Positions 11,965-55,536 of a stretch of 64,000 nt of DNA are shown one piece after another. The DNA is from an uncultured virus (IMG/VR IMGVR_UViG_3300002231_004964) (lineage: Duplodnaviria > Heunggongvirae > Uroviricota > Caudoviricetes). Numbering within the stretch: position 1 is the first letter of the stretch; every line of letters begins with the position of its first letter. Location: IMG/VR virus record IMGVR_UViG_3300002231_004964; one strand, given 5' to 3'. The position numbers and the translations under genes are program-made. Under the pieces are notes generated by a model that did not search any database, had not been told where the DNA came from, and saw only the letters and a program-made list of their open reading frames with translations.

Positions 11965-12029
11965 ACTATCTAATCACCTACGCAACTACTTAAAGTTTAT
12001 GAAACCTGCTCGGTTTAGGCTTAGGGGGC

Positions 12030-13488: not shown

Positions 13489-14887
13489 CTAGTGGGTGTA
13501 GCCGTTACACCTATTTCCTTTAGGGTCAATTTCCTTCATTTTCTTGACTTGGTTTAACGATTCTTCTAATACTTTAGAGGTGATTTCTTCGTCTCCATTC
13601 TCAATAGTAATTAAGTAAGCCGTAGTCACAACCTCACGCAAATAAGCACCTGTTAAGCCCTCCGACCCTTTAGCAATTTTATCAATAGAAATACGAGACG
13701 TCTTGAACTTGCTTAAATATTTCTTAAGGATATCCCGTCTTAAAATCAACATCTGGAATCGGGAATTCAATTCGGATATCAAATCGACCAGGTCGGTCGG
13801 CTAACGCGCGGTCTAGATATTGAGGATAATTCGTAGTAGCGACTGTGACAACATTTCCTGCAGGCCCTAATCCATTAAGAGAGGCTAGCAATTCCCCTAA
13901 TAGTGGATGACTTGCCCCATCTCTTCGGTCGAGACCTCCAAGAGTGTCGATATCTTCAATAATCATAAGTGTAGGGGCAAGTTTCTCGGCTAAAGCGTAA
14001 ATATTTTTAATTTCACGTAAATTTTCCACCGTGTCGTTGGAAACACATATAACCGTACAATCAACTTGATTAATTATAGCCTCACAGGTCATGGTTTTAC
14101 CAGTTCCAGGTGCACCGTAAAGCAGAATTCCTCGGCTTTTGCTCAATCCCTTAGAAGCAAATAAGTCGGAATTTTTCAAAAAGGAAAGCACATTCCGATT
14201 AATTTTTGAACGCGCTTCATCTTGTAAAACGACTTCTCCAAATTCCGTTGCTAATGGTTTTATATACTCCCATTTATTATTGATAATTTGTCCTTTCAAG
14301 GGCCCTTCTGTGCAAAAGTAATCTTTTACGGCATCCCAAAATGAACGTACAATTGAGTCTTCTCGCAAGTAGTGAGTTCGGAATTCAAGATAACCGTCAC
14401 CACCATCCAAATAGGCTTCTAGTTCGAAGACTACTAAGTTCCCGAATTGTTTATGTTGGGCGAAAATAAAGCCCTCACAAAGTAAACTTTCTTTTTGACT
14501 CGGTCCTACTTCAAATTCGCGATACTTTGGTGCAACTTCCTTATCCGAACCATCAATCGTACGGTTGAAGTTAGTAATTTTTTTAACATCAAAGTCTCGA
14601 ACGACGACATCGTGAAAACATTTGATATTGGCTGAAATTTCGTGTTGCACAAAATCTTTGTGATAAGATTCGAAATCCTCCGAACCTAAAAAACTTTGAA
14701 TGGCATCTAATCTTGCGTCCTTTTTGGTTAAGTTACCGAGACAGTACTGAAACACCGTCGACATTTCTTTGACAGGAACGACGAATTCACGACGCTCGAA
14801 ATCGTAAGAAATGTTTAAAGTTTCGGGTACATCGGCTATTTTCTTCAATGTACCATCTTCGTCATAATGATTCCATGATTGTTCCAT
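13489..14887 (-). CDS. AAA-family ATPase (frameshift near 13745)
   Basis: Walker A GAPGTGKT, Walker B IIEDID, SRH ALADRPGRFD; lid region continues in 13489..13782. Confidence 0.9.
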
Positions 14888-14923
14888 ACTGTAAGTAGTG
14901 CTCTGATACCTACTTAAAGCGTA

Positions 14924-15730
14924 TTAATTTTCTTCACGAACTAAACCATTTCCCGAAAGATAGTAATCATGTCGTTCTCTAAAAATTTCCTTTGAACGTT
15001 CCAACCTTTCAATGCGGTCGGAATCCGTACCTCCAAGTTGTTGACCTCCTTGCGTAGTTTGCTCGGAATGTGCACGATGCTCACCTGTTACGGCAGGAAT
15101 TTGAACACCACAATTACGCAACGCTAGTAATCGCAACCAAAGGTCTTGGTCTTCTCCCAAACAAAGTTCGGTATCAAAACCAAACTCAAGGGATTCAAAA
15201 TCGGACCGTCGAATAGCCACTTGACTCGTCATCAAGGGACTTAAACAAATCGCTTTATGTTGCTCTCGACGAGTCATACGGTCATAATCAATAATATGGC
15301 TAGAGATACGATGAACTCGATGAGTTTCACCAGATTTCGGAAATACTAATTCAATATAACAATCAGCCGCAGTCCAATAAACGACACCGTCGGGTTCATC
15401 ACGCATGTAATTCACAAACTCAATGAGATGCTCATCATACCAATAATCATCGCCATCCAAGAAAGCAATATATGGATTATCTCCAAGCGCAATACCTTGA
15501 TTACGGGCTTGAGAAACTCCACGACCCGTTTGTCGCACATAACAAATTCTACTGTCGGATACGAACGTGTCAACCACGAACATCATCTCCTCGTACTGGG
15601 GCCAATCTTCGGGCGTTCCATCAACAATGTAACACTGCCAATCCGAAACGGTTTGCCTTTGAATGGAAGCAAGACATTGCTCTAGCCACTCAGGTTTAAT
15701 TCTGTAAATAGGCACAATTATGTCGAACAT
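14924..15730 (-). CDS. Glycosyltransferase family 2
   Basis: IIVPIY, CLASI..QT, GVSQARNQG, AFLDGDD, EDQDLWLR. Confidence 0.9.
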   Translation of the reverse strand: MFDIIVPIYRIKPEWLEQCLASIQRQTVSDWQCYIVDGTPEDWPQYEEMMFVVDTFVSDSRICYVRQTGRGVSQARNQGIALGDNPYIAFLDGDDYWYDEHLIEFVNYMRDEPDGVVYWTAADCYIELVFPKSGETHRVHRISSHIIDYDRMTRREQHKAICLSPLMTSQVAIRRSDFESLEFGFDTELCLGEDQDLWLRLLALRNCGVQIPAVTGEHRAHSEQTTQGGQQLGGTDSDRIERLERSKEIFRERHDYYLSGNGLVREEN

Positions 15731-16232: not shown

Positions 16233-17165
16233 TCACAGGTCGTCTAAAAATGCCCATTCTTCATCTTCGGTCGTCATAAGGTGTTGCCAATCAGGGTTGT
16301 CAGGAGGAAGTGGAGAAGCGTAAAAAAAGGCAAAGGCATCCATACTCCGACGATTAGGTATATCTCCACAACAATCCATACGTTCAACTCCTTTTAATTC
16401 CGCGGCACCAGACATACGTTGCAACCATGACCAATATTCAACCGTGATGTCTTTAGGTCGAGTAGAATTAACTAGGCTTGGAAAACGACGACACCAATCA
16501 CTAATGGCAGTCATCGTCTTGAAATCATCAGGTTTTTTGGCTAGTGAATCTTCGTGTTCTAAATGATAAGCCGTGATTGCATCAATGTATTGCGGGTGTG
16601 CCTCGGGTAAAAGACTTAAACGTAGCCCTAAGTCGGTATCTTCAAGAACAGGAAGCCGTTCATCAAAGCCTGCAACTGTGTCGAAATGTTCGCGAGGAAC
16701 GACTAAGGTAGTCGGCCAAACAGGTGTGTCTCGATAAAATAATCCTGCAGTCCCTGGTAAAACGTGTTGAGCGTCTAAATAACGCCCACCCACATAGGAT
16801 AGTTCATAATCTTGACCTGCTTCAAAAGCCGTGTGGTAAAAGACGGCATTTGTATTTAGGTGAGGAACAAAACTGGCTAAATGGTGGTCGTACCAGTAAT
16901 CATCAGCATCTAAGAATGCTAAATAGGGGTTCGAGCCTGCGGTTGCACCTTGATTTCGCGCCCCTGCTACGAATTTACGTGACTCATCTTGAATTAACCA
17001 AGTAAATTTATCCATAGGATACGCACTGCGTATAGTAGAGGGAATTTCAGTAGTCGAAACTACGTAACAATGCCAATCCGTAAAGGTTTGAGCAATGACA
17101 CTATCTAAACAAGTGGTTAAATACTGGTCAGGTGTGTCCTTAGAAGGAATAATAACATCAAACAT
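16233..17165 (-). CDS. Glycosyltransferase family 2 (paralogue of 14924..15730)
   Basis: MFDVIIP, CLDSVIAQT, AGARNQG, AFLDADD, EDTDLGLR. Confidence 0.9.
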   Translation of the reverse strand: MFDVIIPSKDTPDQYLTTCLDSVIAQTFTDWHCYVVSTTEIPSTIRSAYPMDKFTWLIQDESRKFVAGARNQGATAGSNPYLAFLDADDYWYDHHLASFVPHLNTNAVFYHTAFEAGQDYELSYVGGRYLDAQHVLPGTAGLFYRDTPVWPTTLVVPREHFDTVAGFDERLPVLEDTDLGLRLSLLPEAHPQYIDAITAYHLEHEDSLAKKPDDFKTMTAISDWCRRFPSLVNSTRPKDITVEYWSWLQRMSGAAELKGVERMDCCGDIPNRRSMDAFAFFYASPLPPDNPDWQHLMTTEDEEWAFLDDL

Positions 17166-17173
17166 GATAGTGA

Positions 17174-17398
17174 TTACGGCCACTTTCTATTTAACTCTTC
17201 TTGCTGTCTTCGTCGTTGAATTCGACGTGTTTTCCACCATTTAGCAAATCGATGAGTAAGGTAAACTAAGACGACTAAAAGTAAAATTTCACCTAAGAGT
17301 TGTAAGCCTGTATGCCAAGTCGCCTCGGCTTCAACACACCAAACAGGAAAATCGTCGGGTGCAGGACTGTAATCATCAACACAAGATTCAAATTTCAT
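17174..17398 (-). CDS. Small single-TM membrane protein
   Basis: LLGEILLLVVLVYL followed by basic tail. Confidence 0.65.
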   Translation of the reverse strand: MKFESCVDDYSPAPDDFPVWCVEAEATWHTGLQLLGEILLLVVLVYLTHRFAKWWKTRRIQRRRQQEELNRKWP

Positions 17399-18226
17399 AG
17401 TGTGCCTTCTAATAGTTGGCGCTTATACCAGTCGACATTTTCAGGTTTAACGGCAATACCCATCTCAACTAGTTTCGTCGCGATAAGGGCATCAGGCCCA
17501 TCATAAAGAGTGTATTGAACAAGACAACACAAGTCTTCTTTTCCAAACAAACCTGGTGCGGAATAATTATATGTGCGGTTGATACCGATGGCTCCACGGC
17601 TATCGTTGTAAACGGTAACTTGAACATCCCATTGTTGACCAGGGAGGATATAGATAGGAGATTCAAAATCAAAGGTGGAACGGCATGAAGCCGTTTCAGG
17701 ACACGGACTTGCCGAACCAGGTAAACCAGGTCCGACAGTGCCATCAGTTTCATCGAAGTAACTAGTAGTGTTGATGAGGACTTGCATAAACATTAAAGGC
17801 CCTGCAATACTCGTAAATGGATTAACGTGGGTAGTTTGAAATGTTAATTCAGGTGCGTTACCACCATTAGGAGTGTAAGTAGGGTTCGGTGAGTTCACGA
17901 CGTTGCCTGGGTTGGCAGGATTTGTCTCAATTCCTGTAGCAATCCCCGCCGCTCCTGCAGGGCCGCCTAATGTTTTGTAGAGAGTAGTTACGGCAGCACC
18001 CGATAAAAAGAAAGACGGTGAACAACGGATGTTGTCAATAGCAACGAATTGCGTCGCCTTGGTCGCGGCAGGTTCAGTAATATTATTACCGATACCACCT
18101 GTGAAGATGGAAAATGGAATACCCGCAATCTGTTCGAAAGTTGTACCTTGGCTAGGGGTCAGCGAATGGGAAACCATTAGTTTGTCGATTAATTTGCCAC
18201 TCGTATAGTTGTCGTCTCATACTCAT
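17395..18226 (-). CDS. Capsid-like paralogue 4 (YDGPDALIA family); frameshift near 18155
   Basis: N-terminus MSMRRQLYEW at 18226 (TAATG overlap) matches paralogues; NNITEPAATKATQF, YILPGQ.WD, YTLYDGPDALIA, NVDWYKR. Confidence 0.75.
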
Positions 18227-18912
18227 TACTGACCGCCTCCTACTTCCGCAAGTAATTGACGTTTATACCAATCAACATTAGACATGCTAACAGGATAACC
18301 CATTTCAACTAATTTTGATGCAATCAAAGCATCAGGACCGTCATATACAGAATAAGTAGTAAAACTAATGCAAGTATCACCAGGGAGGATAACATCTCCA
18401 CCTTGTAGTACAGTTCCCGAGACGGCCGTAAGTGGGATGAATTTATTTTCAAAGGTTTGCCCTGGTAAGATGTAAATAGGTTGATTAAGTTTGTTCATCG
18501 AGTAGGTGTATTGTCCTGGATTACCTGCGGCAATACCTTGCGTGTCGTTATTTTCGGCACCATCAGGGAATGGATATGCCAAACCAGGGAAGGCAGACAC
18601 GTCAGTCGAAGTGCCATCAGGGTTAACGTTGTAAGCCGTAGTATTAACAATAGGCTTGACACGACCCTGTTGATTGATAGAACAAAGCGGTTTTTCAATC
18701 ACAATGAATTGCGTGGCCGTAGCCGACGTAGGCATAGTCAAACTAGGTCCAATTGAATCTGAGAAGGTGTCGGTATTCGTACCTGCCGTAATATTAGTGG
18801 GTCTAGGATTAGTGATGTATCCAGTTGTCCCTGGATAATCGCCTGTTAGGTTGGCCGCTACTGTAAATTGACCACCATTTAACCATAATCGATTAACACT
18901 ACGGGCTGACAT
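18226..18912 (-). CDS. Capsid-like paralogue 3
   Basis: TATQFIVIE, PIYILPGQ, YDGPDALIASKLVEMG, NVDWYKR; TATA at 18935-18943. Confidence 0.75.
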   Translation of the reverse strand: MSARSVNRLWLNGGQFTVAANLTGDYPGTTGYITNPRPTNITAGTNTDTFSDSIGPSLTMPTSATATQFIVIEKPLCSINQQGRVKPIVNTTAYNVNPDGTSTDVSAFPGLAYPFPDGAENNDTQGIAAGNPGQYTYSMNKLNQPIYILPGQTFENKFIPLTAVSGTVLQGGDVILPGDTCISFTTYSVYDGPDALIASKLVEMGYPVSMSNVDWYKRQLLAEVGGGQ

Positions 18913-18951
18913 ACTCTCTAGTTGTCCGTTCTACTACTTAAAGTATTCGAC

Positions 18952-19062
18952 GAAAGAAAACGTAAATTGAAAAAGCCCCCNCTCCGTCAACCGAAGCAGG
19001 GGCTCTAACTTCCCCGCAGGAAGTTAGTTCATGGAAACTAAAACCTTTCAACTACTGTTGAC
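18952..19062 (-). terminator. Multi-hairpin 3' element ending in a GC stem plus U-tract
   Basis: TCAAC/GTTGA, CTAACTTCC/GGAAGTTAG and AGCCCC...GGGGCT stems followed by TTTT, downstream of 19067..19756. Confidence 0.6.
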
Positions 19063-19066
19063 CGAC

Positions 19067-19756
19067 TCACATNCCTTGACTTTGAATCAAGGTTCGCTTG
19101 TACCAGTCAACGTTACCTGGGTTGACGGAAATACCCATCTCCAANAGTTTGTTGGCGATAAGAGCATCTGGTCCATCATACAGGGTGTACTTGACGAAGC
19201 ACTGTAGAGCGCCTGAAGCCAAAGTTCCTGCAGTAGGTGCAGCACCTGGGGTAAGGTAGTTGTTGCTTTGGTAAGCAGTAACACGAACGTCCCATGTCTG
19301 ACCTGGCAAGACGTAAACGTCAGGGTACAGGTTGAAACAAGGTTGGAAGTTCACACTTCGTGGGTATGGACTTGCTGAACCTGGAACACCGTCGTTTCCG
19401 ACGTTGTCTGGGTCTAGGAAGTAATCCGTGGTGTTGATACGGATTTGCACATACGCACGAGGTCCTGCAATACCTGTAGAACCACCAGATGTGGTGTTAG
19501 TTGGTAGACCTCGGTAGGTTTGTCCAGAATTACTCGCTTGAGAGCGCACGTGTTGCACGAAAGCGGACGGCGTAACAGCGATATCTTCGATTACACAGAA
19601 CTGGGTTGCAGTGGTTTCAGCAGGCTTGGTAATGTTGTTACCGAATCCACCGACGAAGATGGAAAGGGCCGAACCGAATTGTGTAGTAGTCATTGCAGTA
19701 CCACTGACAGCGGTGCGGTTAGCGTCCCATTCATAGACTTGGCTACGCATTGACAT
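19067..19756 (-). CDS. Capsid-like paralogue 2 (candidate major capsid protein)
   Basis: MSMRSQVYEW, NNITKPAETTATQF, YVLPGQTWD, VKYTLYDGPDALIANK; RBS GGAGGTG. Confidence 0.75.
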   Translation of the reverse strand: MSMRSQVYEWDANRTAVSGTAMTTTQFGSALSIFVGGFGNNITKPAETTATQFCVIEDIAVTPSAFVQHVRSQASNSGQTYRGLPTNTTSGGSTGIAGPRAYVQIRINTTDYFLDPDNVGNDGVPGSASPYPRSVNFQPCFNLYPDVYVLPGQTWDVRVTAYQSNNYLTPGAAPTAGTLASGALQCFVKYTLYDGPDALIANKXLEMGISVNPGNVDWYKRTLIQSQXM

Positions 19757-20432
19757 TACTGTGCACCTCCGTTAGCAGCAGCAGCCGCAGCAGATGCCGC
19801 AGCAGCACTTTGTTGTTCAATCAGGGTTCGCTTGTACCAGTCAACGTTGTTTGGGTTAACAGTTACTACCAAGTTCCAACAGTTTGTTGGCAATTAGTGC
19901 GTCTGGGCCGTCGTAAAGAGTGTACTTTACGAAAGCAGCAACGGCTAGGGTTGAACCTGCGCCTCCACCGACGTTGTTGTTGGATGTTGTCGAACTGTAA
20001 CGCATATCCCAAACTTGTCCAGGGAGGACGTAAACGTCGGGGGTTAGTTCGAACGCATTCAACAGTTGAACGCCGTTGTCAGCATTGGCTAGTCCGACTG
20101 TGTCACTGCTACCACGGGGGTAAGGTGACGCAGTTCCAGGGACACCTGCTTGCTGTGTTACGTCTGGGTTCTGGGAAGTAACTGGTAGTGTTAATAACTA
20201 CTTGGACCGCTCCGCCAACGTAGGCGGAAGCAGCAAGGTCCTCAATTACAACGAACTGTGTTGCGGTTGTTTCAGCGGGCTTGGTAATGTTATTACCGTA
20301 CTGTCCAGTAAAGACCGAAATTTCTCGGTCAATGGGAACTGCGACCGCTTCAGCGTTTAGACCTCGGCGGAGCATGAAGTTCCCAGATGTAGACAGATTA
20401 GCCCATTCATATACTTGGCTTCTCATACTCAT
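19756..20432 (-). CDS. Capsid-like paralogue 1 (candidate major capsid protein); frameshifts near 20175 and 19866
   Basis: Removing one base at each site restores FQNPD...GVPGTASPYPR and VTVNPNNVDWYKRTL, colinear with paralogue 2; TATA at 20481-20489. Confidence 0.75.
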
Positions 20433-20598
20433 TTTATCATCTCTTGCACTCTTGGTGCATCTTATATTAGTTTTTTGGACTACTTAAAGATTTCGGTAGG
20501 TGAAACGGTCGTGAGTTTCCAGTTTTCGGCACCCTCCTCTAAAGAGGTAGCCTTACGGCACGATGAATAGTAACTAAACGAGTTCGCGGTGTATCCGC

Positions 20599-20925
20599 TT
20601 AAGCGCCGACTGCAGAACCGACCTTGCCGATGACTGCCTTGCCTTCTTCGAGAACTGCACCAGGTTGTGCAATAACTGTACCGAATCCAAGCGGGTCATA
20701 TCCGAGACCGATGTAAAGTACTAGTAGAATACCACCAATACTACCGAATGTCGCTAGAAGTCCGCCAATGATTGGAGAACTGTAAAGTCCAGATAGGGCA
20801 GTTCCGATAGAACCGAAGATACCACCAACACCAGGAATTAGACTTAGTGTTGCCATTGAACCGATAATCATACTGAAACCTACACCGAGTTGTAGGCCTT
20901 TTGCTATTAGATTTGTTATTTCCAT
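20599..20925 (-). CDS. Gly-rich small membrane protein (virion membrane candidate)
   Basis: 2-3 hydrophobic GxxxG segments; RBS AGGTGA. Confidence 0.7.
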   Translation of the reverse strand: MEITNLIAKGLQLGVGFSMIIGSMATLSLIPGVGGIFGSIGTALSGLYSSPIIGGLLATFGSIGGILLVLYIGLGYDPLGFGTVIAQPGAVLEEGKAVIGKVGSAVGA

Positions 20926-20945: not shown

Positions 20946-21221
20946 TTATGCTGTTACTGTTTCTTCAATAACTCCGATGATTTCTCCACCAGGGATTACA
21001 TCTTCAAGAGTTGTCTTAGCGTCTCGAAGTAGACTCCAAGAATTAATTAGAATGAATCCACCTGCTAGTGCAGTAACAAGACCGAAAATGTGTCCTACGT
21101 TAAATCGACCGAAAATTTTCCTATTTAGGTCTAGGCCTGTAGCGTATCCCATGGCACCAAATCCAGTGATGAAAACTACACCACCCAAAATCATTGTTCT
21201 AAAGTTTGCATTTCCTAACAT
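20946..21221 (-). CDS. Two-TM small membrane protein
   Basis: RBS AGGTGA before ATG 21221. Confidence 0.7.
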   Translation of the reverse strand: MLGNANFRTMILGGVVFITGFGAMGYATGLDLNRKIFGRFNVGHIFGLVTALAGGFILINSWSLLRDAKTTLEDVIPGGEIIGVIEETVTA

Positions 21222-21231
21222 TTTATTCACC

Positions 21232-22305
21232 TTACTGACCAATTACACTACCCATACCGATAGCACCTTTCATTTCATTGCTAATAGTTGTACCATTTGC
21301 GTTCTTTGTCATGCGTCGAGGAACGGAGTTACCGCCTCGGCGAGCAGTAGTTGTTGGCGCTTGGTAAGAGTTGAACACGTTTTGAATACCTGCCTTGGTC
21401 TCAGCAGTGTAGTGCGCGTTCTTTTGAATCATAGTTGGAGTGTCCTCAGCGTAGTAGGCTTGAGGTTGGTAAGAAGTAGTCTTAGGCATAACGGATTCTA
21501 CGAAGGCATTCTTTGCATCGCTTCCACGACGTTGTAGTGAGCCAGTTGCTTGGGCGAAACTTTGGTCGTGTTCAACTGCAGTTACGCCACCTTGTCCGTA
21601 GTTAACTGGAAGAACGTCGCCTTCGCCGAAGTTTCCTTCTGCACTAGGGCCTGACGCAACTTCTGCCGCTAGAGTAATATCTTTGCGAGTCATCTCAGGG
21701 TCGATAGTAAACGGACTAGTATCTACTTGATAGTTAGATTGTCCTGCGGAAACGTGTCCGCTTCCAGTTGGAGAACGCTTAGTAACAGTCTCAGACTTAA
21801 GGTCGAAACCCGTTACCTTACCAAGAGTAGAGTTCCAAACAGTTCGAAGACCTTGATATGCTAGACCTGCACCTGCGACAATTCCACTAATCTTCCACAT
21901 ATCGGAAGAACTGGAGTTACCCCATGCGATAAAGAATGTTCCAACAATAGCCGTAAATGCTCCACCGAGGGCTTGAATACCTCCATCGGGCAACATATTA
22001 AGAATACCAACTGCAACATTGTTTACCAATCCTGCGGCTACAACTACACCTGCAATCATTCCATAGAAACTAATGTCGGTGTATGTTCGCCAGTCAGTTG
22101 CAGTTTTTGCAGCCCCGACAAAGTCAGTCGAAACACCAGTTACTTGGTCGATAACACCGTCAACGACATCTGTTGCGTCACCCATTATAGTTTCTGCAGC
22201 ACCACTAAAGTTAGTGTATTGATTATCTTGATGTCCTTCTGCGACAATGTTACTATCTTCCTTAATTTCGGAAACGGCAATTGCCTCGTTTACTGGTCCG
22301 ACCAT
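21232..22305 (-). CDS. Three-TM membrane protein with AE motifs
   Basis: GAAET, LKSET, LAAE, YYAE, YTAET; CTTTATATA near 22328. Confidence 0.75.
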   Translation of the reverse strand: MVGPVNEAIAVSEIKEDSNIVAEGHQDNQYTNFSGAAETIMGDATDVVDGVIDQVTGVSTDFVGAAKTATDWRTYTDISFYGMIAGVVVAAGLVNNVAVGILNMLPDGGIQALGGAFTAIVGTFFIAWGNSSSSDMWKISGIVAGAGLAYQGLRTVWNSTLGKVTGFDLKSETVTKRSPTGSGHVSAGQSNYQVDTSPFTIDPEMTRKDITLAAEVASGPSAEGNFGEGDVLPVNYGQGGVTAVEHDQSFAQATGSLQRRGSDAKNAFVESVMPKTTSYQPQAYYAEDTPTMIQKNAHYTAETKAGIQNVFNSYQAPTTTARRGGNSVPRRMTKNANGTTISNEMKGAIGMGSVIGQ

Positions 22306-35738: not shown

Positions 35739-36949
35739 TCAATCATCTCGAAGAAGTGCCAAGACGACGGTGGCGGTGGCTAGAAAACCACCTGTTAAAA
35801 CTAAGCCGAACGTGTAAGGGTTCTTAGTTTTTTCATCCTCTTCCGCTTTCCTTTCTACTACTGGGGCAGACCAAGTTAGAGTAGGTTCATCTAGTTTAGG
35901 AGACATCCAATCGGGTTCGGTGAGGACGGGTGAAGTCACAGGAAGTTTCATCGGGGTGACTTCTGTAGAAAATGTATTGAAACTACTCGTGAATTCCGAG
36001 GCTTTATTTTCCATCACAGGAGTTTCGACGACATCGTAAGCCGTGTGCATTCCAATGTCTTTTTGAGGTCGAACTTCAATGTTTTTACCCTTGTGTTCCG
36101 TTCGTCGGTCACCACGAATCTTACCAATCCATAAGAAACCATCATCTTTCAAGAATTCAGGTGAGTAAAATGATTACATTCACCAGATTGAGCGAAAAGC
36201 GATACCATCTACTAGCCTATCAATCCGCTCTTTATCCGTTCCATAAGATATTTGGTCTTTAATAGCAATCAAGTCACGCGTTTGCATGACGTTGTGAATA
36301 ATGTAAGTACTGGCTTGGGAGAGGGCTTCTTTCGTGATAGCCGCAGGTCGTTGTGTAACCATACAAACACCATAGCCTAAAGCACGACCCAATTTACATA
36401 ATCTAATAATAGGTGCAGTAGCTAGGATTTTCTCTTTTGTAATGGAACGAAATCTTGACACTCTTCGAAAATAGTTAGTAATCCTTTGCCCATTTTGGCT
36501 TGTATTAACGATTCACAATAATCGGCAATCATTTCTTGTTGAGCGTCTAAAGTAAGATTACTAATATCGATAATAAGTGATGAATTAGATTCTTTTAATT
36601 GATTAACTAATTTAGTACAATTAATTGACTCATTTAGTTTCGGAGAAATCTTTTCAATTCCTTCTAATGAGGATAAATGACCGTGAGCGTCGAGCGGGTC
36701 GAAACACACGAATTGAAGACCGAGCCTTTCGAATTCTTCCATCAAAACACCAGCCGTCCACGATTTACCACTTCCACGCATTCCTGTTACGAAGGAAACT
36801 TGATAAATGAATTCTAAAGGAAAGGAAAAATCATCGGCGAGGATAAACTCATCCCTTTGAGCAGTTCGAGGTTCTTCTCGTTGATACTCATCTAACACAT
36901 CGGAANGTTCTCTAGCCTCTCCGACGCCCCAACTTGTGGTTTCATCCAT
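35739..36949 (-). CDS. HerA/FtsK-superfamily ATPase with C-terminal membrane anchor (candidate packaging ATPase); frameshifts near 36445 and 36170-36200
   Basis: Walker A GMRGSGKS, Walker B TIFEECQ, LGRALGYGVCMVTQRP; continuation KIRGDRRTEHKG and TM in 35739..36152; TATA at 36972-36980. Confidence 0.8.
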
Positions 36950-36951
36950 AA

Positions 36952-37398
36952 CTACGGATAGTTGTCCTTACTACTTAAAGTTGACGACCGTTCTCGCCAA
37001 GAAATTCTAAGAGTTACTTGTTTTAAAAATTGAAATTGTCGATGAAACCAAAAATCATTCTTGGCAATAATTTCGTAAAAAGATTTAAACTCCTTACTAG
37101 CAATACTGTATGGCTTTAACTCGTCTAAGAAATCGTGAATTGTGGAATTCATCCAAACCACGATGCCTGTGTCTGACAACCGCAAAATAAACTCTTCATT
37201 AACCATTAAACGACTAAAGAGATTACTGATTTCTCTAGTTTCTACTGCAGGTCGTGAACCAGGAACGTAATTAGGATTAAGATAAATGAAACGCTGAATC
37301 ATTTCTCGATAACTATTAAGATGAATATTCATTAGCCATTCTAGCCATTCTTCGGCTTGCTCGGCTATAAATAATCTCCATACAGGATTTCCCATCAT
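36952..37398 (-). CDS. Hypothetical protein
   Basis: ORF track. Confidence 0.65.
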   Translation of the reverse strand: MMGNPVWRLFIAEQAEEWLEWLMNIHLNSYREMIQRFIYLNPNYVPGSRPAVETREISNLFSRLMVNEEFILRLSDTGIVVWMNSTIHDFLDELKPYSIASKEFKSFYEIIAKNDFWFHRQFQFLKQVTLRISWRERSSTLSSKDNYP

Positions 37399-39802: not shown

Positions 39803-40222
39803 TTATGACCAAATAGTAGCAATAGCCTCGTAAACGTCATCAAGCGAATCAGGATTCATCCCTTCCATAACTTCTAGAGTTTTGGAAATTTGATTCCATT
39901 TAAGTTTTTTCATTCGTTCGTAAATGCCACGATTTTCGGCTCTCTCTTGAAAACCTTTTTGGACTAAGTAGCGTTGTAGGGCTAACACATCTAGTCTCCA
40001 ACGAATTCCACCTTTACGCTCTTTACTTTGAGCGTGGCGGAACATCGGACGATTTCTTAGAATGCCGACGACTTCACGACTCGTGTAGCGACGAGGTTTT
40101 AAATCAACCATACTATCTGAGATTTGAGTGGAATAACCGTAGCCGTTATTATCCAAAAGATAGTCTACAATATCCAAGACTAGACCTTCGGTCAAAGGAA
40201 GGGCTCGACTTCCGCCTGCCAT
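39803..40222 (-). CDS. Putative winged-helix DNA-binding protein
   Basis: IVDYLLDNNGYGYSTQISDSM...YTSREVVGILRNRPMF...RWRL pattern. Confidence 0.55.
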   Translation of the reverse strand: MAGGSRALPLTEGLVLDIVDYLLDNNGYGYSTQISDSMVDLKPRRYTSREVVGILRNRPMFRHAQSKERKGGIRWRLDVLALQRYLVQKGFQERAENRGIYERMKKLKWNQISKTLEVMEGMNPDSLDDVYEAIATIWS

Positions 40223-41177: not shown

Positions 41178-42334
41178 TCACTTATACGTTAGCGTAATAT
41201 GATTAGTAGATTTCTTCTTCCTTTTTAAATCTAATCCTTCTATGTTGGGGTAATCATAACGCTCTCCGTCTAAGTAGTAGCCATCGGCCTTTAACTTAAG
41301 GTCGTCGGTAAACGGGATGTGAATTTGTAAGGTAGTAATATCGTCTTTCGATTGCTTGGAAATAATGTGACGTGGCGTAAGTTCTAAATTAGGACAAACG
41401 ACGCGACCGAAATCCACTAAGCGGTCGGCTTTTGGTTCAAAGGGAAATTTCGGAACGCCACAAAGTTTAATACCTAGGGAATTAGTAACCGCACCGTAGT
41501 GAGATAAATAAGGTTGTTGATTATCGCGCTCTAATTTCAGTAAAGCCACGGCTTTATTGGTGTCGGCTAGTTCCCATGTTTCGTCATCAAATGCAGGGAC
41601 AAGATTATTGATAACTACATTCGCCACAGAAATATCGAGCGATTTCAAAAACTTAAATCGTTCTTTGTACACTCTTGGTATCCTGCCTCGGTAGCAATGC
41701 TTACTAGGTTTACTTGCACATGAGACGGGTTTCTAATTAATTCTCTAATTCGTAGCATTAAATTACGAGTATTTTCCAAAAATTCCACAAATGGATTTAA
41801 ATCATCCTTCCTTCGCATCATGAATCCTTTTAAGTTCATAATCTTAGCCCTCATCCGTAAGATACGCAAAATAAAGCCTTCAATGGCTTCGGGACAAGTT
41901 AACGCCTTTAAAGTATGTCCTGTCGGTGCAGTATCGAAAACAATAAGGTCGAACTCAGACCCAACGGTTAAATTTAAGATTTTCTTAAGTGCGAACACTT
42001 CATCCATACCAGGAAAATTAAACCAATCGGAAAACATGTCTGCATCGACACCAGGCATTAAGGTAGCAAAGGAATCTTGCATAAGATTTTGCAATTCACC
42101 GAAAAACTCTTCGGCTTCGGTTGAAGCGTTGATATTAGCAGCCCAAAAATTATCCGAAATATGAGTGGGTTTGAATCCAACAGGAACGCCCAAAACATCT
42201 TCGGTCGAATGTGCAGGGTCGCTACTAACTAAGATGGTTCGATAACCATTTTCAGCCCAAAATTGCGCCGTGGCAGCAGATGTACTCGACTTTCCGACAC
42301 CACCCTTACCAGTAAAGAGAACGAGTCTAGTCAT
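41178..42334 (-). CDS. arsA: ArsA/Get3(TRC40)-family ATPase (frameshift near 41665)
   Basis: GKGGVGKS, SSDPAHS, FPGMDE, FDTAPTGHTL, VVINN; single domain. Confidence 0.9.
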
Positions 42335-42367
42335 GTCGTAGGATAGTTGACGTTCGTATTTAATACT

Positions 42368-50718: not shown

Positions 50719-50928
50719 CTATTCCGTTTTGCTACTTAAAGATACTCTTTCATACAACCGCTCGTAAGCGGCGTAAATCGGAATAAAGCAAACGGTAGAG
50801 TAAATCATAAATAAACCGAAGGTACTGCCGTAATTCATATCGGTTAACCAACACCAAAGTAAGGCAAAAGGTTGAAAGGCTATCAATCCTGCAATAGGTC
50901 TCGCTACGTCCTTGAAATTCATCATCAT
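50719..50928 (-). CDS. Small two-TM membrane protein
   Basis: Hydrophobic; TTATAAG box upstream. Confidence 0.65.
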   Translation of the reverse strand: MMMNFKDVARPIAGLIAFQPFALLWCWLTDMNYGSTFGLFMIYSTVCFIPIYAAYERLYERVSLSSKTE

Positions 50929-52395: not shown

Positions 52396-53740
52396 TCATC
52401 CGATACTTCCATCCATTTCCAACTCTAAAAGTTTGTTCAACTCTACTGCGTATTCCATTGGTAATTCTTTTGTAAAGGGTTCGAAGAATCCATTAATGAT
52501 GAGTGCCTTNGCCTCTGCTTCGGTATACTCCCCTACTCATTAGATAAAATAACTGGTCGTCTGAGACCTTTGATACGGATGCCTCATGTTCTGTAATTGC
52601 TGAATGACTTTCTACCTCCATTGTAGGGTAAGTATCTGATTGTGAATTTCCATCCATCAAGAGAGCATCACAAACTACATTAGAGCGGCAGTTCTTTGCT
52701 TTGCGGGATATTTTTACCAACCCTCGGTATGAAGTACGCCCTCCATCCATACTAATACTTTTAGAGAGGATGTTTGAAGTTGTGTTTGATGCAAGATGAT
52801 GAACTTTGGCTCCTGTGTCTTGATGCTGTCCTTCTTTTGCATAAGCAACAGAAATTACTTCTGCATGGGCGTTTACTCCCTTTAGAAGAACGGCAGGATA
52901 TTTCATTGTTAAGGACGAGCCAATGTTCCCATCTACCCATTCAATAATTGCATCCTTGTGGGCAACTGCTCTTTTGGTAACTAGGTTGAAAATATTATCC
53001 GACCAATTTTGAATAGTAGTATAACGGATGTGCGCTCCCTCTAATGCTACTAATTCTACTACGGCTGAATGCAAACTGTTGGTAGAAAATGTTGGAGCGG
53101 TGCAACCTTCAATGTAGTGAATAGATGAGCCCTCATCAGCCACGATAAGAGTGCGTTCAAATTGACCCATATTTTCGCTAGCGATGAGAAAGTATGCTTG
53201 CACAGGTATGTCCACCTTTACGCCTTTAGGAACGTAGATGAATGAACCTCCAGACCATACGGCAGTATTCAAAGCAGAGAATTTATTATCTGCACTTGGG
53301 ACTACACTACCAAAATACTGTTTTACTATGTCAGGGTGTTCTCGTAAACCTGAATCCATATCCATGAAAATAACACCTTGACTTTCTAAATCTTCCCTAA
53401 TGGAATGATAAATAGACTCACTTTCGTATTGTGCAGTTAGTCCTCCTAACCATTTCTGTTCGGCCTCTGGAATGCCTAATGCATCAAAAGTCTGTTTGAT
53501 TTTATCAGGAACTTGGTCCCAATCTTGTTGGGTTTCTCCAAGGACACGAAAATAGCAAATATCATTGAAATCTAAGGTATTCAATTTTTCAGTATTTCCC
53601 CATTGAGGTGTAGGTCGTTTGACAAACTGTTGGTATGCTCTAACACGAATATCCGTCATCCAAGTAGGCTCACGCTTGTAATTAGAAATAGCCCTCACTA
53701 CTTCTTCAGATAGCCCGTCATGAAGTTCATAACTTTCCAT
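52396..53740 (-). CDS. sufB: Fe-S cluster assembly scaffold SufB (frameshift near 52530)
   Basis: [50 protein letters not shown]; alternate frame ends [27 protein letters not shown]. Confidence 0.95.
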
Positions 53741-53787: not shown

Positions 53788-55536
53788 TTAACTTTCTAAT
53801 TCGTCAAGGATACCGTCGCCATCATCATCCGTGTCGATGTAATCAGAGACGCCATCATTGTCGTGGTCAAATTGACCTGTCATGTTGTTACCGTCGTTGT
53901 TTTCGAACCAGTCAGAAAGACCGTCGTTATCATCGTCGGTATCAGTTGCGTCCCAAATACCATCATTGTCGTGGTCGTAACGATACTCACCCCAAGAACC
54001 GCCTACTTCATCCACGTCTAAAATGTTATCGTTGTCGTCGTCAGTATCAACTGAATCATTTAGACCATCATTATCGTGGTCACGACTTGCATCAGACCCA
54101 TTTTCATATACGTCATTACGATTATCGATACCATCATTATCGATATCAAAATCGAATCTGTCTTGGATGCCATCATTATCGTGGTCATAAATATCAGTGT
54201 TTGGATTACCATCGTTCACTTCTTCATCATCATTGATACCATCGCCATCATCGTCATTATCTTCATGGTCGTCAATACCATCATTGTCGTGGTCGTTTGG
54301 CGATTCGTCTTGGGAATCAGGGATTCCATCGTTATCATCATCATTGTCTAATACATCGGGGATGCCGTCGCCATCGTTGTCATTGTCACCGTTTTGTTCC
54401 TGGTTGTCAATTTGTTGACCTTGTTGTTGGTCTGATTGTTGACCTTGTTGACCTTGTTGCCCATTCTGAGTTTGACCTTGCTGTTGTTGGTTTTGACCAT
54501 TTTGGTTCTGACCACCTTGGTTTTGTTGCTCTTGTTGACCTTGTTGACCACCTTGCTCACCACCATTTTGTTGCTGACCTTGACCGTTATCTTGTTGTTG
54601 ACCTTGCTGACCTTGCTGACCTTGCTGACCACTTTGGCCTTGTCCAGTTTGTTGTCCTTGTTGGCCTGCTTGTCCCTGTTGGCCTTGCTGACCTTGCTGT
54701 CCTTGCTGGCCTTGCTGACCTTGTTGACCTTGACCTTGTCCCTGCCCTTGACCTTGTCCCTGGTTCTGACCTTGCCCCTGACCTTGTCCTTGACCTTGAC
54801 CCTGGCCCTGACCTTGGCCTTGACCTTGGCCTTNACCTTGGCCTTGTCCTTGGCCTTGTCCTTGGCCCTGTCCTTGGCCTTGTCCTTGTCCTTGTCCTTG
54901 GCCTTGTCCTTGGCCTTGTCCTTGGCCTTGACCCTGTCCTTGACCTTGTCCTTGTCCTTGGCCTTCACCTTGTCCATTGTCGTTGGATTCGCCACCGCCT
55001 TCTGTACCTCCATTACCTGAACCTGCTTGAGATTCTTGATAATCAGGGTCATAAGCATCGGGAATTCCATCACCATCGGAGTCACTAAACTCTCCATCAT
55101 TCGGGTCGTTAGGATACGGGTCGCTACCATCTGGTTTACCGTCACCATCAGTGTCGGCTGAGTTTGGGTTTGTTCCGCGTTGATATTCTTGCGAGTTAGT
55201 TAACCCGTCACCATCAGGGTCTCCATTGGCATCTCCACCATTCAGTGGGTCTAAACCATGATTAACTTCCCAACCATCGGGTAATCCGTCGCCATCAGTA
55301 TCGGGATTATTGAAATTCGTTCCTTCGTTTTGTTCTTCCGCATTAGTTAAACCGTCACCGTCCCAATCGGCCCCACCATCAGATGGGTCTAAGGGGTCAG
55401 TGCCGTCAGCCGCCACCACACCTGCAGACATTGCAAGCATAAGGGCAGTCAAAATTGTTAACAATACGCGCTTCGTTCTAGATTCTTTTACATTCTCCAT
55501 ATTTTCACTTACTTGTGTTCGTTCTAGGAAACCCAC
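53788..55536 (-). CDS. Secreted/anchored protein with TSP3-like Ca-binding D-rich repeats flanking a (GQ)n/(GQQ)n tract
   Basis: Signal-like hydrophobic segment; DxDGDGL and DHDNDG repeats; RBS GAGGAG. Confidence 0.85.
   Translation of the reverse strand: MGFLERTQVSENMENVKESRTKRVLLTILTALMLAMSAGVVAADGTDPLDPSDGGADWDGDGLTNAEEQNEGTNFNNPDTDGDGLPDGWEVNHGLDPLNGGDANGDPDGDGLTNSQEYQRGTNPNSADTDGDGKPDGSDPYPNDPNDGEFSDSDGDGIPDAYDPDYQESQAGSGNGGTEGGGESNDNGQGEGQGQGQGQGQGQGQGQGQGQGQGQGQGQGQGQGQGQGQGQGQGXGQGQGQGQGQGQGQGQGQGQGQNQGQGQGQGQGQGQQGQQGQQGQQGQQGQQGQAGQQGQQTGQGQSGQQGQQGQQGQQQDNGQGQQQNGGEQGGQQGQQEQQNQGGQNQNGQNQQQQGQTQNGQQGQQGQQSDQQQGQQIDNQEQNGDNDNDGDGIPDVLDNDDDNDGIPDSQDESPNDHDNDGIDDHEDNDDDGDGINDDEEVNDGNPNTDIYDHDNDGIQDRFDFDIDNDGIDNRNDVYENGSDASRDHDNDGLNDSVDTDDDNDNILDVDEVGGSWGEYRYDHDNDGIWDATDTDDDNDGLSDWFENNDGNNMTGQFDHDNDGVSDYIDTDDDGDGILDELES
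54410..54975 (-). repeat. Coding microsatellite: about 40 GQ hexamers then GQQ nonamers
   Basis: Degenerate CCTTGN hexamer array on the plus strand. Confidence 0.95.

Follow-up and report, generated by a model that had tools for sequence, protein, structure and literature searches.

Sulfolobus polyhedral virus 1 (SPV1), an archaeal virus of the Portogloboviridae (PDB 6oj0), builds its shell from two single-jelly-roll proteins, VP4 in hexamers and VP10 in pentamers (PMC8459092). The shell lies over an internal lipid layer, and the 20-kb genome encodes a glycosyltransferase (PMC8459092). Krupovic and colleagues describe the 20-kb genome as circular and the host as a hyperthermophile and note that the virus lacks a packaging ATPase; in their scheme the SPV1 protein is basal in the jelly-roll branch of the helvetiaviruses (PMC8812541). 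Here, we analyzed a 64,000-nucleotide stretch of DNA (the window) from an uncultured virus (IMG/VR IMGVR_UViG_3300002231_004964), in which four paralogous genes in tandem, at positions 17395-20432 on the minus strand, probably encode the single-jelly-roll proteins that form the shell of a large virus infecting marine archaea.

The closest described architecture is that of the Halopanivirales in the Helvetiavirae, which combine two adjacent single-jelly-roll genes (VP16/VP17 in P23-77 and VP4/VP7 in HCIV-1, HHIV-2 and SH1) with an FtsK/HerA-type ATPase. In these viruses the ATPase and capsid genes stand in one conserved block, and one of the two capsid proteins reportedly bears a surface "tower." Their known genomes are several-fold smaller than those of the lineage described below. 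The Borgs of Methanoperedens are described as large linear archaeal elements with consecutive, highly expressed paralogues for single-jelly-roll capsid-like proteins; these jelly rolls are reported to be closest to HCIV-1, sugar-related genes are proposed to decorate the capsid, and the polymerase is of the B family (PMC12660748). The magroviruses are head-tailed; they encode a portal and a terminase besides a capsid protein of the HK97 type (PMC11706807). Known archaeal single-jelly-roll viruses are small (20 kb for SPV1), and known large marine archaeal viruses are head-tailed. Full-text literature searches, whose coverage leaves out most subscription journals, returned no description of the present lineage.

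The four genes of the array are as follows.

19756..20432, minus strand: paralogue 1, type I; starts MSMRSQVYEWANL; lies in three frames in the record, about 225 codons if read through
19067..19756, minus strand: paralogue 2, type II; starts MSMRSQVYEWDA; 229 amino acids, open, with two X residues from N
18226..18912, minus strand: paralogue 3, divergent type; starts MSARSVNRLW; 228 amino acids, open
17395..18226, minus strand: paralogue 4, type-II derivative; starts MSMRRQLYEWQINRQTNG; frame broken in the record

Pairwise BLASTP between the three long open reading frames (ORFs) of the array gave E values of 6e-21 to 2e-53, and the 107-residue first piece of paralogue 1 matched the other paralogues at E 2e-8 to 2e-19. 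The motifs (T/K)ATQF..I(E/D), Y(V/I)LPGQ, YDGPDALIA.KL.E.G and NVDWYKR were common to all four paralogues, and MSMR.Q.YEW formed the N terminus of three of them. A TAATG overlap couples paralogues 1 and 2 (19754-19758), the start codon of the second overlapping the stop codon of the first, and another couples paralogues 3 and 4 (18224-18228). None of the array proteins had a signal peptide or a hydrophobic segment. The first-pass annotation, made from the letters of the window, had listed the four paralogues, their shared motifs, the common N terminus of three and the two TAATG-coupled pairs, and all of these were seen again in the sequence and by BLASTP. It had also given four genes of 225 to 280 amino acids; four paralogues are indeed present, but paralogues 1 and 4 are frame broken in the window's own letters. 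What remains of paralogue 4 is an ATG-started ORF of 260 amino acids (17395-18177), and its intact orthologue P0039 has 280 amino acids.

An AlphaFold model of paralogue 2, built on 65 diverse family members, had a pLDDT of 84.0 and a pTM of 0.81, and DSSP assigned to it eight strands and two C-terminal helices. The model of paralogue 3, built on 36 sequences, was weak (pLDDT 60). When the paralogue 2 model was compared with 48,161 representative chains of the PDB, the top match was SPV1 chain 6oj0_T (Z 8.4, root mean square deviation 3.4, 137 of 178 residues), and the next match had a Z of 6.3. Re-alignment of the Foldseek list placed SPV1 chain 6oj0_A on top (Z 8.7, 140 residues; next Z 6.3), and this chain was also the first row of the Foldseek search against the PDB (E 6.5e-3). 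The paralogue 3 model, compared with all PDB representatives, likewise had SPV1 6oj0_T as its top match (Z 6.3; next Z 5.6). We take the matched 178-residue chain to be VP4, as the many-copy chain of 6oj0.

The top rows of the fold searches with the paralogue 2 model were all jelly rolls. The capsid proteins of the Halopanivirales matched this model at a Z of 5.8 for HHIV-2, 5.3 to 5.4 for P23-77, 5.2 for HCIV-1 and 4.7 for SH1, which is the range of unrelated jelly rolls. As modeled, the paralogues fold as a single jelly roll. Among solved structures a shell protein of an archaeal virus comes closest, by a real but modest margin over other jelly rolls. The first-pass annotation had proposed a jelly roll with a C-terminal helix, and a different fold would have spoken against it; the model with a pLDDT of 84 turned out to be an eight-stranded jelly roll with C-terminal helices. 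The annotation had cited Halopanivirales-type viruses as the established precedent; the closest structure belongs instead to the Portogloboviridae, and the Halopanivirales proteins reach a Z of 4.7 to 5.8.

Other structure-based searches were less specific. A search of BFVD gave weak rows only, to unnamed phage proteins (best E 3.9e-4). In the Protein Atlas, the nearest clusters were unnamed and labeled viral; the nearest clusters with a Pfam family carry P2_N/P2_C, at a score of 0.76 that is often reached by chance, and we treat this as a lead only. P2 is the coat protein of PM2. Complex prediction for a type I protein (the L012 orthologue) with the type II protein of the window gave 0.25 and 0.28 against a mark of 0.32, which is no verdict either way.

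We then analyzed the protein family across its relatives. The paralogues matched no Pfam or PHROGs family and had no named relative; tblastn with 18226-18912 as the query found nothing among 50,697 phage records. A scan of IMG/VR with a single protein found no relative, while an alignment-based scan (type II) found four. The family comprises 58 close proteins and 301 clusters (50% identity) at E<=1e-3, and at least 553 metagenome stretches encode relatives. Parts of the window stretch itself occur in 20 sequencing runs from 13 studies. With a family so common in ocean data, its host and ecological weight become testable questions.

At least two adjacent copies were found in 80 of the 83 related loci, and the remaining three loci are cut by the contig end. 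Two clades diverge deeply in a tree of 68 copies: a type I clade of 25 rows (SH-aLRT 100) holds paralogue 1, and a type II clade of 32 rows (SH-aLRT 99) holds paralogues 2 and 4. Paralogue 3 and its orthologues form a separate long-branch clade of unsure placement. The N termini also separate the types, with ...YEW(A/S)NL in type I and ...YEWDA in type II. Most lineages have a single type I-type II pair, and the lineage of the window has type I, type II, the divergent type and the type-II derivative. In the locus L081 (8510-11592), the type I-type II pair was duplicated independently to give four copies, of which the first and third are sisters, as are the second and fourth (support 98 and 99). 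Since the pair is kept and is duplicated as a unit, the pattern suggests that types I and II work together.

The pair is also well conserved. Paralogue 2 and its orthologues in two distant relatives have 63% identity, compared with 28 to 50% for most shared proteins; averaged over alignment columns, identity is 73% within type I and 68% within type II. Each of the related records has five to seven family matches, including a second pair. Intact relatives of paralogue 4, in the loci L005, L006, L009, L010 and L012, have 386 to 439 amino acids and a variable insert of about 110 to 150 amino acids in the middle of the protein. By analogy, this insert is what a surface "tower" would look like, and it is comparable to the tower of the Halopanivirales.

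The wider element was characterized by Pfam and PHROGs scans of 70 ORFs of the window and of a collinear 136-kb relative (134 ORFs for Pfam and 107 for PHROGs). No HK97 capsid protein, portal or classical terminase was detected in the window or in the 136-kb relative by these general scans, through which portals were covered with no search dedicated to portal families. Phage_capsid (PF05065) and Terminase_6N (PF03237) were each absent from all five related records. We infer that the virus has no tail.

The genes of the window lie nearly all on one strand, and more than 80% of the ORFs scanned had no family match. The matched ORFs of the window included an archaeal-type GluRS, SufB, ArsA/Get3, Fpg, an ATP-dependent ligase, an archaeal resolvase-like nuclease, a SAP-domain protein, two family 2 glycosyltransferases (GT2), an AAA+ ATPase and the following candidate packaging motor.

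35748..36949, minus strand: HerA/FtsK-type ATPase; frame-split in the record; 404 to 411 amino acids in relatives

An intact orthologue of this ATPase matched phrog_2666 ("terminase large subunit") through its P-loop domain (E 3.6e-17) and also matched HerA chains of the PDB. The ATPase was present in five of five related records, as were the DP2 large subunit of the family-D DNA polymerase (PolD) and the transcription factor TFIIB/TFB. The 136-kb relative encodes a full-length PolD large subunit (L086:15575-19072; TIGR00354, 962 bits against a cut-off of 702) and TFB (L085:1574-2524, E 2e-95), together with an XPD-like helicase, Cu/Zn superoxide dismutase, PP2C, NUDIX and deoxynucleoside monophosphate kinase; its Pfam scan gave no match recognizable as the DP1 small subunit of PolD. 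An archaeal setting is supported by PolD DP2 and TFB in all five records, by the archaeal-type GluRS and by a TATA-like box 21 to 23 nucleotides before start codons.

The window is collinear with the 136-kb contig and with a 61-kb contig, and no terminal repeats were found at the ends of these two relatives. IMG/VR holds four relatives as virus records of 123 to 166 kb, two of which are classed as having inverted terminal repeats. No tRNA, rRNA or Rfam match was found in the window, and no ribosomal-protein family appeared when the window and the 136-kb relative were scanned with Pfam. Several broader claims of the first-pass annotation are supported by these data: the archaeal assignment by PolD DP2 and TFB, the archaeal-type GluRS and the TATA-like box; a genome larger than 64 kb by the related records of 123 to 166 kb, two with inverted terminal repeats; and an expanded capsid gene set by the five to seven family matches per record. 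The annotation had also set the lineage apart from the tailed magroviruses, a distinction that an HK97 major capsid protein or terminase would have contradicted, and none was seen in the window, in the 136-kb relative or in the PF05065 and PF03237 search of the five records.

Comparison with the described systems gives both likenesses and differences. Like SPV1, the present lineage has a single jelly roll, for which SPV1 is the best structural match of two paralogues, a probable archaeal host, a pair of candidate shell proteins and a glycosyltransferase. Unlike SPV1, it is marine, has genomes of 123 to 166 kb (about eightfold larger), some with inverted terminal repeats, and encodes the HerA/FtsK ATPase, PolD and TFB; no sequence similarity between the two is detectable by profile against PDB sequences or in the structural alignment. 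With the Halopanivirales it shares the adjacent jelly-roll genes and the FtsK/HerA-type ATPase, but the ATPase stands about 16 kb from the array, the copy number is four to seven and the structural scores are no higher than those of unrelated jelly rolls.

The Borgs, as described, are the nearest published parallel: large linear archaeal elements with cell-like genes and tandem jelly-roll genes. They differ in belonging to anaerobic methane-oxidizing Methanoperedens, in being sampled from soil and in having a B-family polymerase. The magroviruses of marine group II archaea are likewise large marine archaeal viruses known from metagenomes and have many replication genes of their own, but their HK97 capsid protein, portal and terminase have no counterpart found in the present lineage.

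The capsid reading draws on the fold with its SPV1 match, on the conserved pairing and gene order, on the genes of archaeal type, and on the absence of any detectable HK97 protein or terminase. It is quite possible, if somewhat short of probable, that a high-rank lineage of archaeal viruses, so far undescribed and abundant in seawater, uses these proteins as its major capsid proteins. Its members would have linear genomes of about 160 kb with inverted terminal repeats and would combine an SPV1-like pair with a HerA/FtsK motor and with their own PolD and TFB. If so, no larger tail-less archaeal virus is known to us, and this would be the first virus known to have a family-D DNA polymerase; full-text searches of the literature found none. 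The lineage would form a large-genome branch joining the Portogloboviridae to the two-jelly-roll Helvetiavirae and would bear on the proposed path from one jelly-roll capsid gene (SPV1) to two (Helvetiavirae) (PMC8812541). It would also indicate that a single-jelly-roll shell scales to giant-virus-like genomes in archaea, in parallel to the double-jelly-roll giant viruses of eukaryotes, and it would provide a marine counterpart to the tandem jelly-roll genes of the Borgs and place PolD and TFB in a virus.

Several points weigh against a capsid role in such a virus. There is no direct virion evidence in the form of proteomics, particles or an isolate. The Foldseek search of the PDB with the paralogue 2 model had no row at E<=0.001, a Z of 8.4 to 8.7 is barely above the common range (a best Z of 7 to 8 is typical without a clear match), the identity to SPV1 in the structural alignment was 12%, and the 65-sequence profile gave no match among PDB sequences at E<=10. 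Jelly rolls have other functions too, in lectins, cupins, nucleoplasmins and spike or cement proteins, and it is these that occupy the lower rows (Z 5 to 6.3). The ATPase does not adjoin the array as in the Halopanivirales, the distance being about 16 kb in the window and 18 to 19 kb in the 136-kb relative. The Pfam and PHROGs scans can miss divergent HK97 or double-jelly-roll capsid proteins, with most ORFs unmatched, and five ORFs of the 136-kb relative that cross 20-kb cuts lay outside the scans. CheckV rated the relatives as 53 to 65% complete. Contigs from two RNA libraries cover paralogues 1 and 2, in favor of the capsid reading, but RNA-library contigs can hold DNA.

An unlikely alternative is that the element is viral but its jelly-roll proteins have accessory places in the virion, at the vertex, in the base of a spike, or as cement or decoration, and that the major capsid protein proper is among the unrecognized ORFs. 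The paralogue 2 model also matches the STIV turret (4ind, Z 5.9), PRD1 P5 (Z 5.1) and the KHP40 cement protein (Z 5.7), the family C-terminal module ends proteins in open frames of 966 to 1,574 amino acids in relatives, and with more than 80% of the ORFs unmatched an undetected capsid protein is conceivable. The best match, however, is a shell protein that stands 2.1 to 2.4 Z units above all others. The type I-type II pair is the lineage's most constant feature and among its most conserved proteins, and no scan gave an HK97, portal or terminase signal.

Somewhat less likely still is that the element is a nonviral extrachromosomal element or giant plasmid of a marine archaeon, similar to the Borgs, and that the jelly rolls serve in carbohydrate binding, a protein compartment or a surface structure. 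Cell-like genes are present in the window (SufB, GluRS, ArsA/Get3 and Fpg) and in the relatives (PolD and TFB), jelly rolls have many cellular uses, and the GT2 neighbors described below would also fit a glycan-related role. The Borgs themselves carry consecutive jelly-roll genes, and their viral status is unsettled (PMC12660748). Against a cellular role, the paralogues lack a signal peptide and a hydrophobic segment, and the HerA/FtsK ATPase has a packaging-type PHROG match. Neither tRNA nor rRNA was found in the window, and ribosomal-protein families were absent from the Pfam scans; two relatives have inverted terminal repeats, and automatic pipelines class the relatives as viral. The genome bins in which the related 136-kb and 61-kb contigs were placed, most likely by mis-binning, bear the titles Rickettsiales and Acidiferrobacteraceae; a scatter over two unrelated bacterial groups is what a free element would show.

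In the window's own letters, only paralogues 2 and 3 are open. The reading of paralogue 1 (20432-19756) changes frame twice, near 20173 and near 19867, and so occupies three frames. In paralogue 4, which begins MSMRRQLYEW at 18226, a CCCC run (18155-18158) is followed by a TAG (18152-18154), and the coding sequence is taken up again in the next frame. Each of the three breaks acts as one extra base, readable as a surplus letter in a short single-letter run. We compared contigs of four public runs with the window over 19146-20600, a stretch that takes in both paralogue 1 breaks. One base was absent at 19867 and at 20173 in every covering contig (runs X1, X15 and X16; one DNA and two RNA libraries), and the fourth run covers neither position. 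One of the DNA contigs was identical to the window over 201 bases apart from the missing extra base(s). The relatives L010 and L012 have all four genes open, and in L013 the fourth copy leaves the contig end. At least five further genes of the window are frame-split compared with intact orthologues in relatives.

1190-2147: 320-amino-acid gene
13531-14887: AAA ATPase
35748-36949: HerA-type ATPase
41376-42361: ArsA/Get3
54396-55491: TSP3-repeat protein

The record also contains 13 N. Since the extra bases of paralogue 1 are absent from the public contigs and close relatives have intact genes, we attribute the breaks to an error-prone record; on this sequence comparison they are errors or rare variants of the record, not biology, and we conclude that the array is functional. 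That the array is decaying, two of its four copies being pseudogenes after duplication, is highly improbable: three frame breaks within 3 kb of the window's letters and a TAA in the relative L002 would fit such decay, but all contigs (three runs) over both paralogue 1 breaks lack the extra base, L010 and L012 keep four open copies, and at least five unrelated genes of a record with 13 N are split likewise. Programmed +1 frameshifting, which was raised because all three breaks shift alike, was rejected on the same public contigs, which cover the two breaks of paralogue 1, and on the intact relatives.

The TAA of L002 (10106-10108) replaces CAA at the Gln of TATQF, a Gln codon in every other family member. 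An alternative code with TAA as Gln was considered for this site and was not adopted, as it rests on a single case; the codon could be an error, a nonsense mutation or a site of read-through.

For the preferred reading, in which the four genes encode shell proteins, we propose the following mechanism. Types I and II would probably co-assemble into ring-shaped capsomers, like the single-jelly-roll proteins of SPV1 and the Halopanivirales. An internal membrane, provided by the small hydrophobic proteins of the neighboring genes, may lie beneath the shell, and the C-terminal helices may face inward as anchors. The extra copies (the divergent type and the type-II derivative) might form specialized capsomers, such as tower-bearing or vertex-near ones. 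Sugars could be added to the shell by the adjoining GT2 glycosyltransferases, and the HerA/FtsK-type ATPase would be the motor that fills it with DNA. Behind its archaeal TATA-like box, each gene pair may be transcribed as a single leaderless unit with the aid of the virus-encoded TFB.

The genes around the array are listed here.

20946..21242, minus strand: small hydrophobic protein of 98 amino acids, before the array
20599..20925, minus strand: small hydrophobic protein of 108 amino acids, before the array
17174..17398, minus strand: small hydrophobic protein of 74 amino acids with one hydrophobic segment, directly after the array
16233-17183 and 14924-15730, minus strand: two GT2 glycosyltransferase genes, with a 142-amino-acid ORF between them
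13531..14887, minus strand: AAA+ ATPase, PAN/Cdc48-like, frame-split in the record

The hydrophobic proteins of 74, 108 and 98 amino acids thus flank the array, where small membrane-protein genes had been annotated. Flank scans of two relatives, L001 and L002, showed the order of the window, with the GT2 genes and then the AAA ATPase after the array.

A promoter-like box, CTTTAAGTAG, stands before both gene pairs, as had been anticipated from a TATA box seen ahead of each.

20480..20489, minus strand: promoter-like box before paralogues 1 and 2; ends 47 nucleotides before the ATG
18934..18943, minus strand: promoter-like box before paralogues 3 and 4; ends 21 nucleotides before the ATG
11986-11995, 14910-14919, 36971-36980 and 50732-50741: examples of further copies

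Over the whole window, the box had 24 matches with at most one mismatch, compared with 4.6 expected, and none of 100 shuffles reached 24. Twenty of the matches were on the coding strand, and 12 of these 20 end 21 to 23 nucleotides before the ATG of an ORF of at least 60 amino acids. The 61-kb contig has 22 exact copies, all on the coding strand, and the 136-kb contig has none. The spacing before start codons in the window would fit an archaeal TATA box ahead of leaderless messages.

Two GC-rich hairpins were seen by eye at 18970-19030, between the stop codon of paralogue 2 and the box of paralogue 3, the second being followed by TTTTT. They fit two separate transcription units; a simple terminator scan did not list hairpins at about 18970-19030. 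In the Ala-rich tail of paralogue 1 (19774-19807), a GCNGCN repeat recruits unrelated, very deep contigs (depth to about 8,800 in run X4), so that read depth is meaningless there.

Large proteins ending in the family C-terminal module occur in the relatives, as expected of spikes anchored in the shell. In G002 (C16, 125674-130846) and G005 (C1, 115286-118328), and likewise in G004 and G006, a short ORF corresponding to the N-terminal two thirds of the jelly roll adjoins a large ORF (966 to 1,574 amino acids of open frame) that ends in the family C-terminal strand and helices; in G002 the two overlap. The arrangement may reflect a single protein of the capsid fold interrupted by a huge insert, or else a spike with the same anchor in the shell.

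Other proteins of the window were also observed. The 860-amino-acid protein at 48128-50710 matches archaeal glutamate-tRNA ligase in its N-terminal half (E 2.6e-130, positions 6-405 of 567), and its C-terminal part of about 430 amino acids had no match. SufB (52493-53740, 621 bits) is encoded near this GluRS fusion, and both are cell-like genes on a virus-like element. The 139-amino-acid protein at 39803-40222, which adjoins the SAP-domain protein, is the most conserved of those shared with relatives (73% and 63% identity) and may be a DNA-binding or genome-condensing protein.

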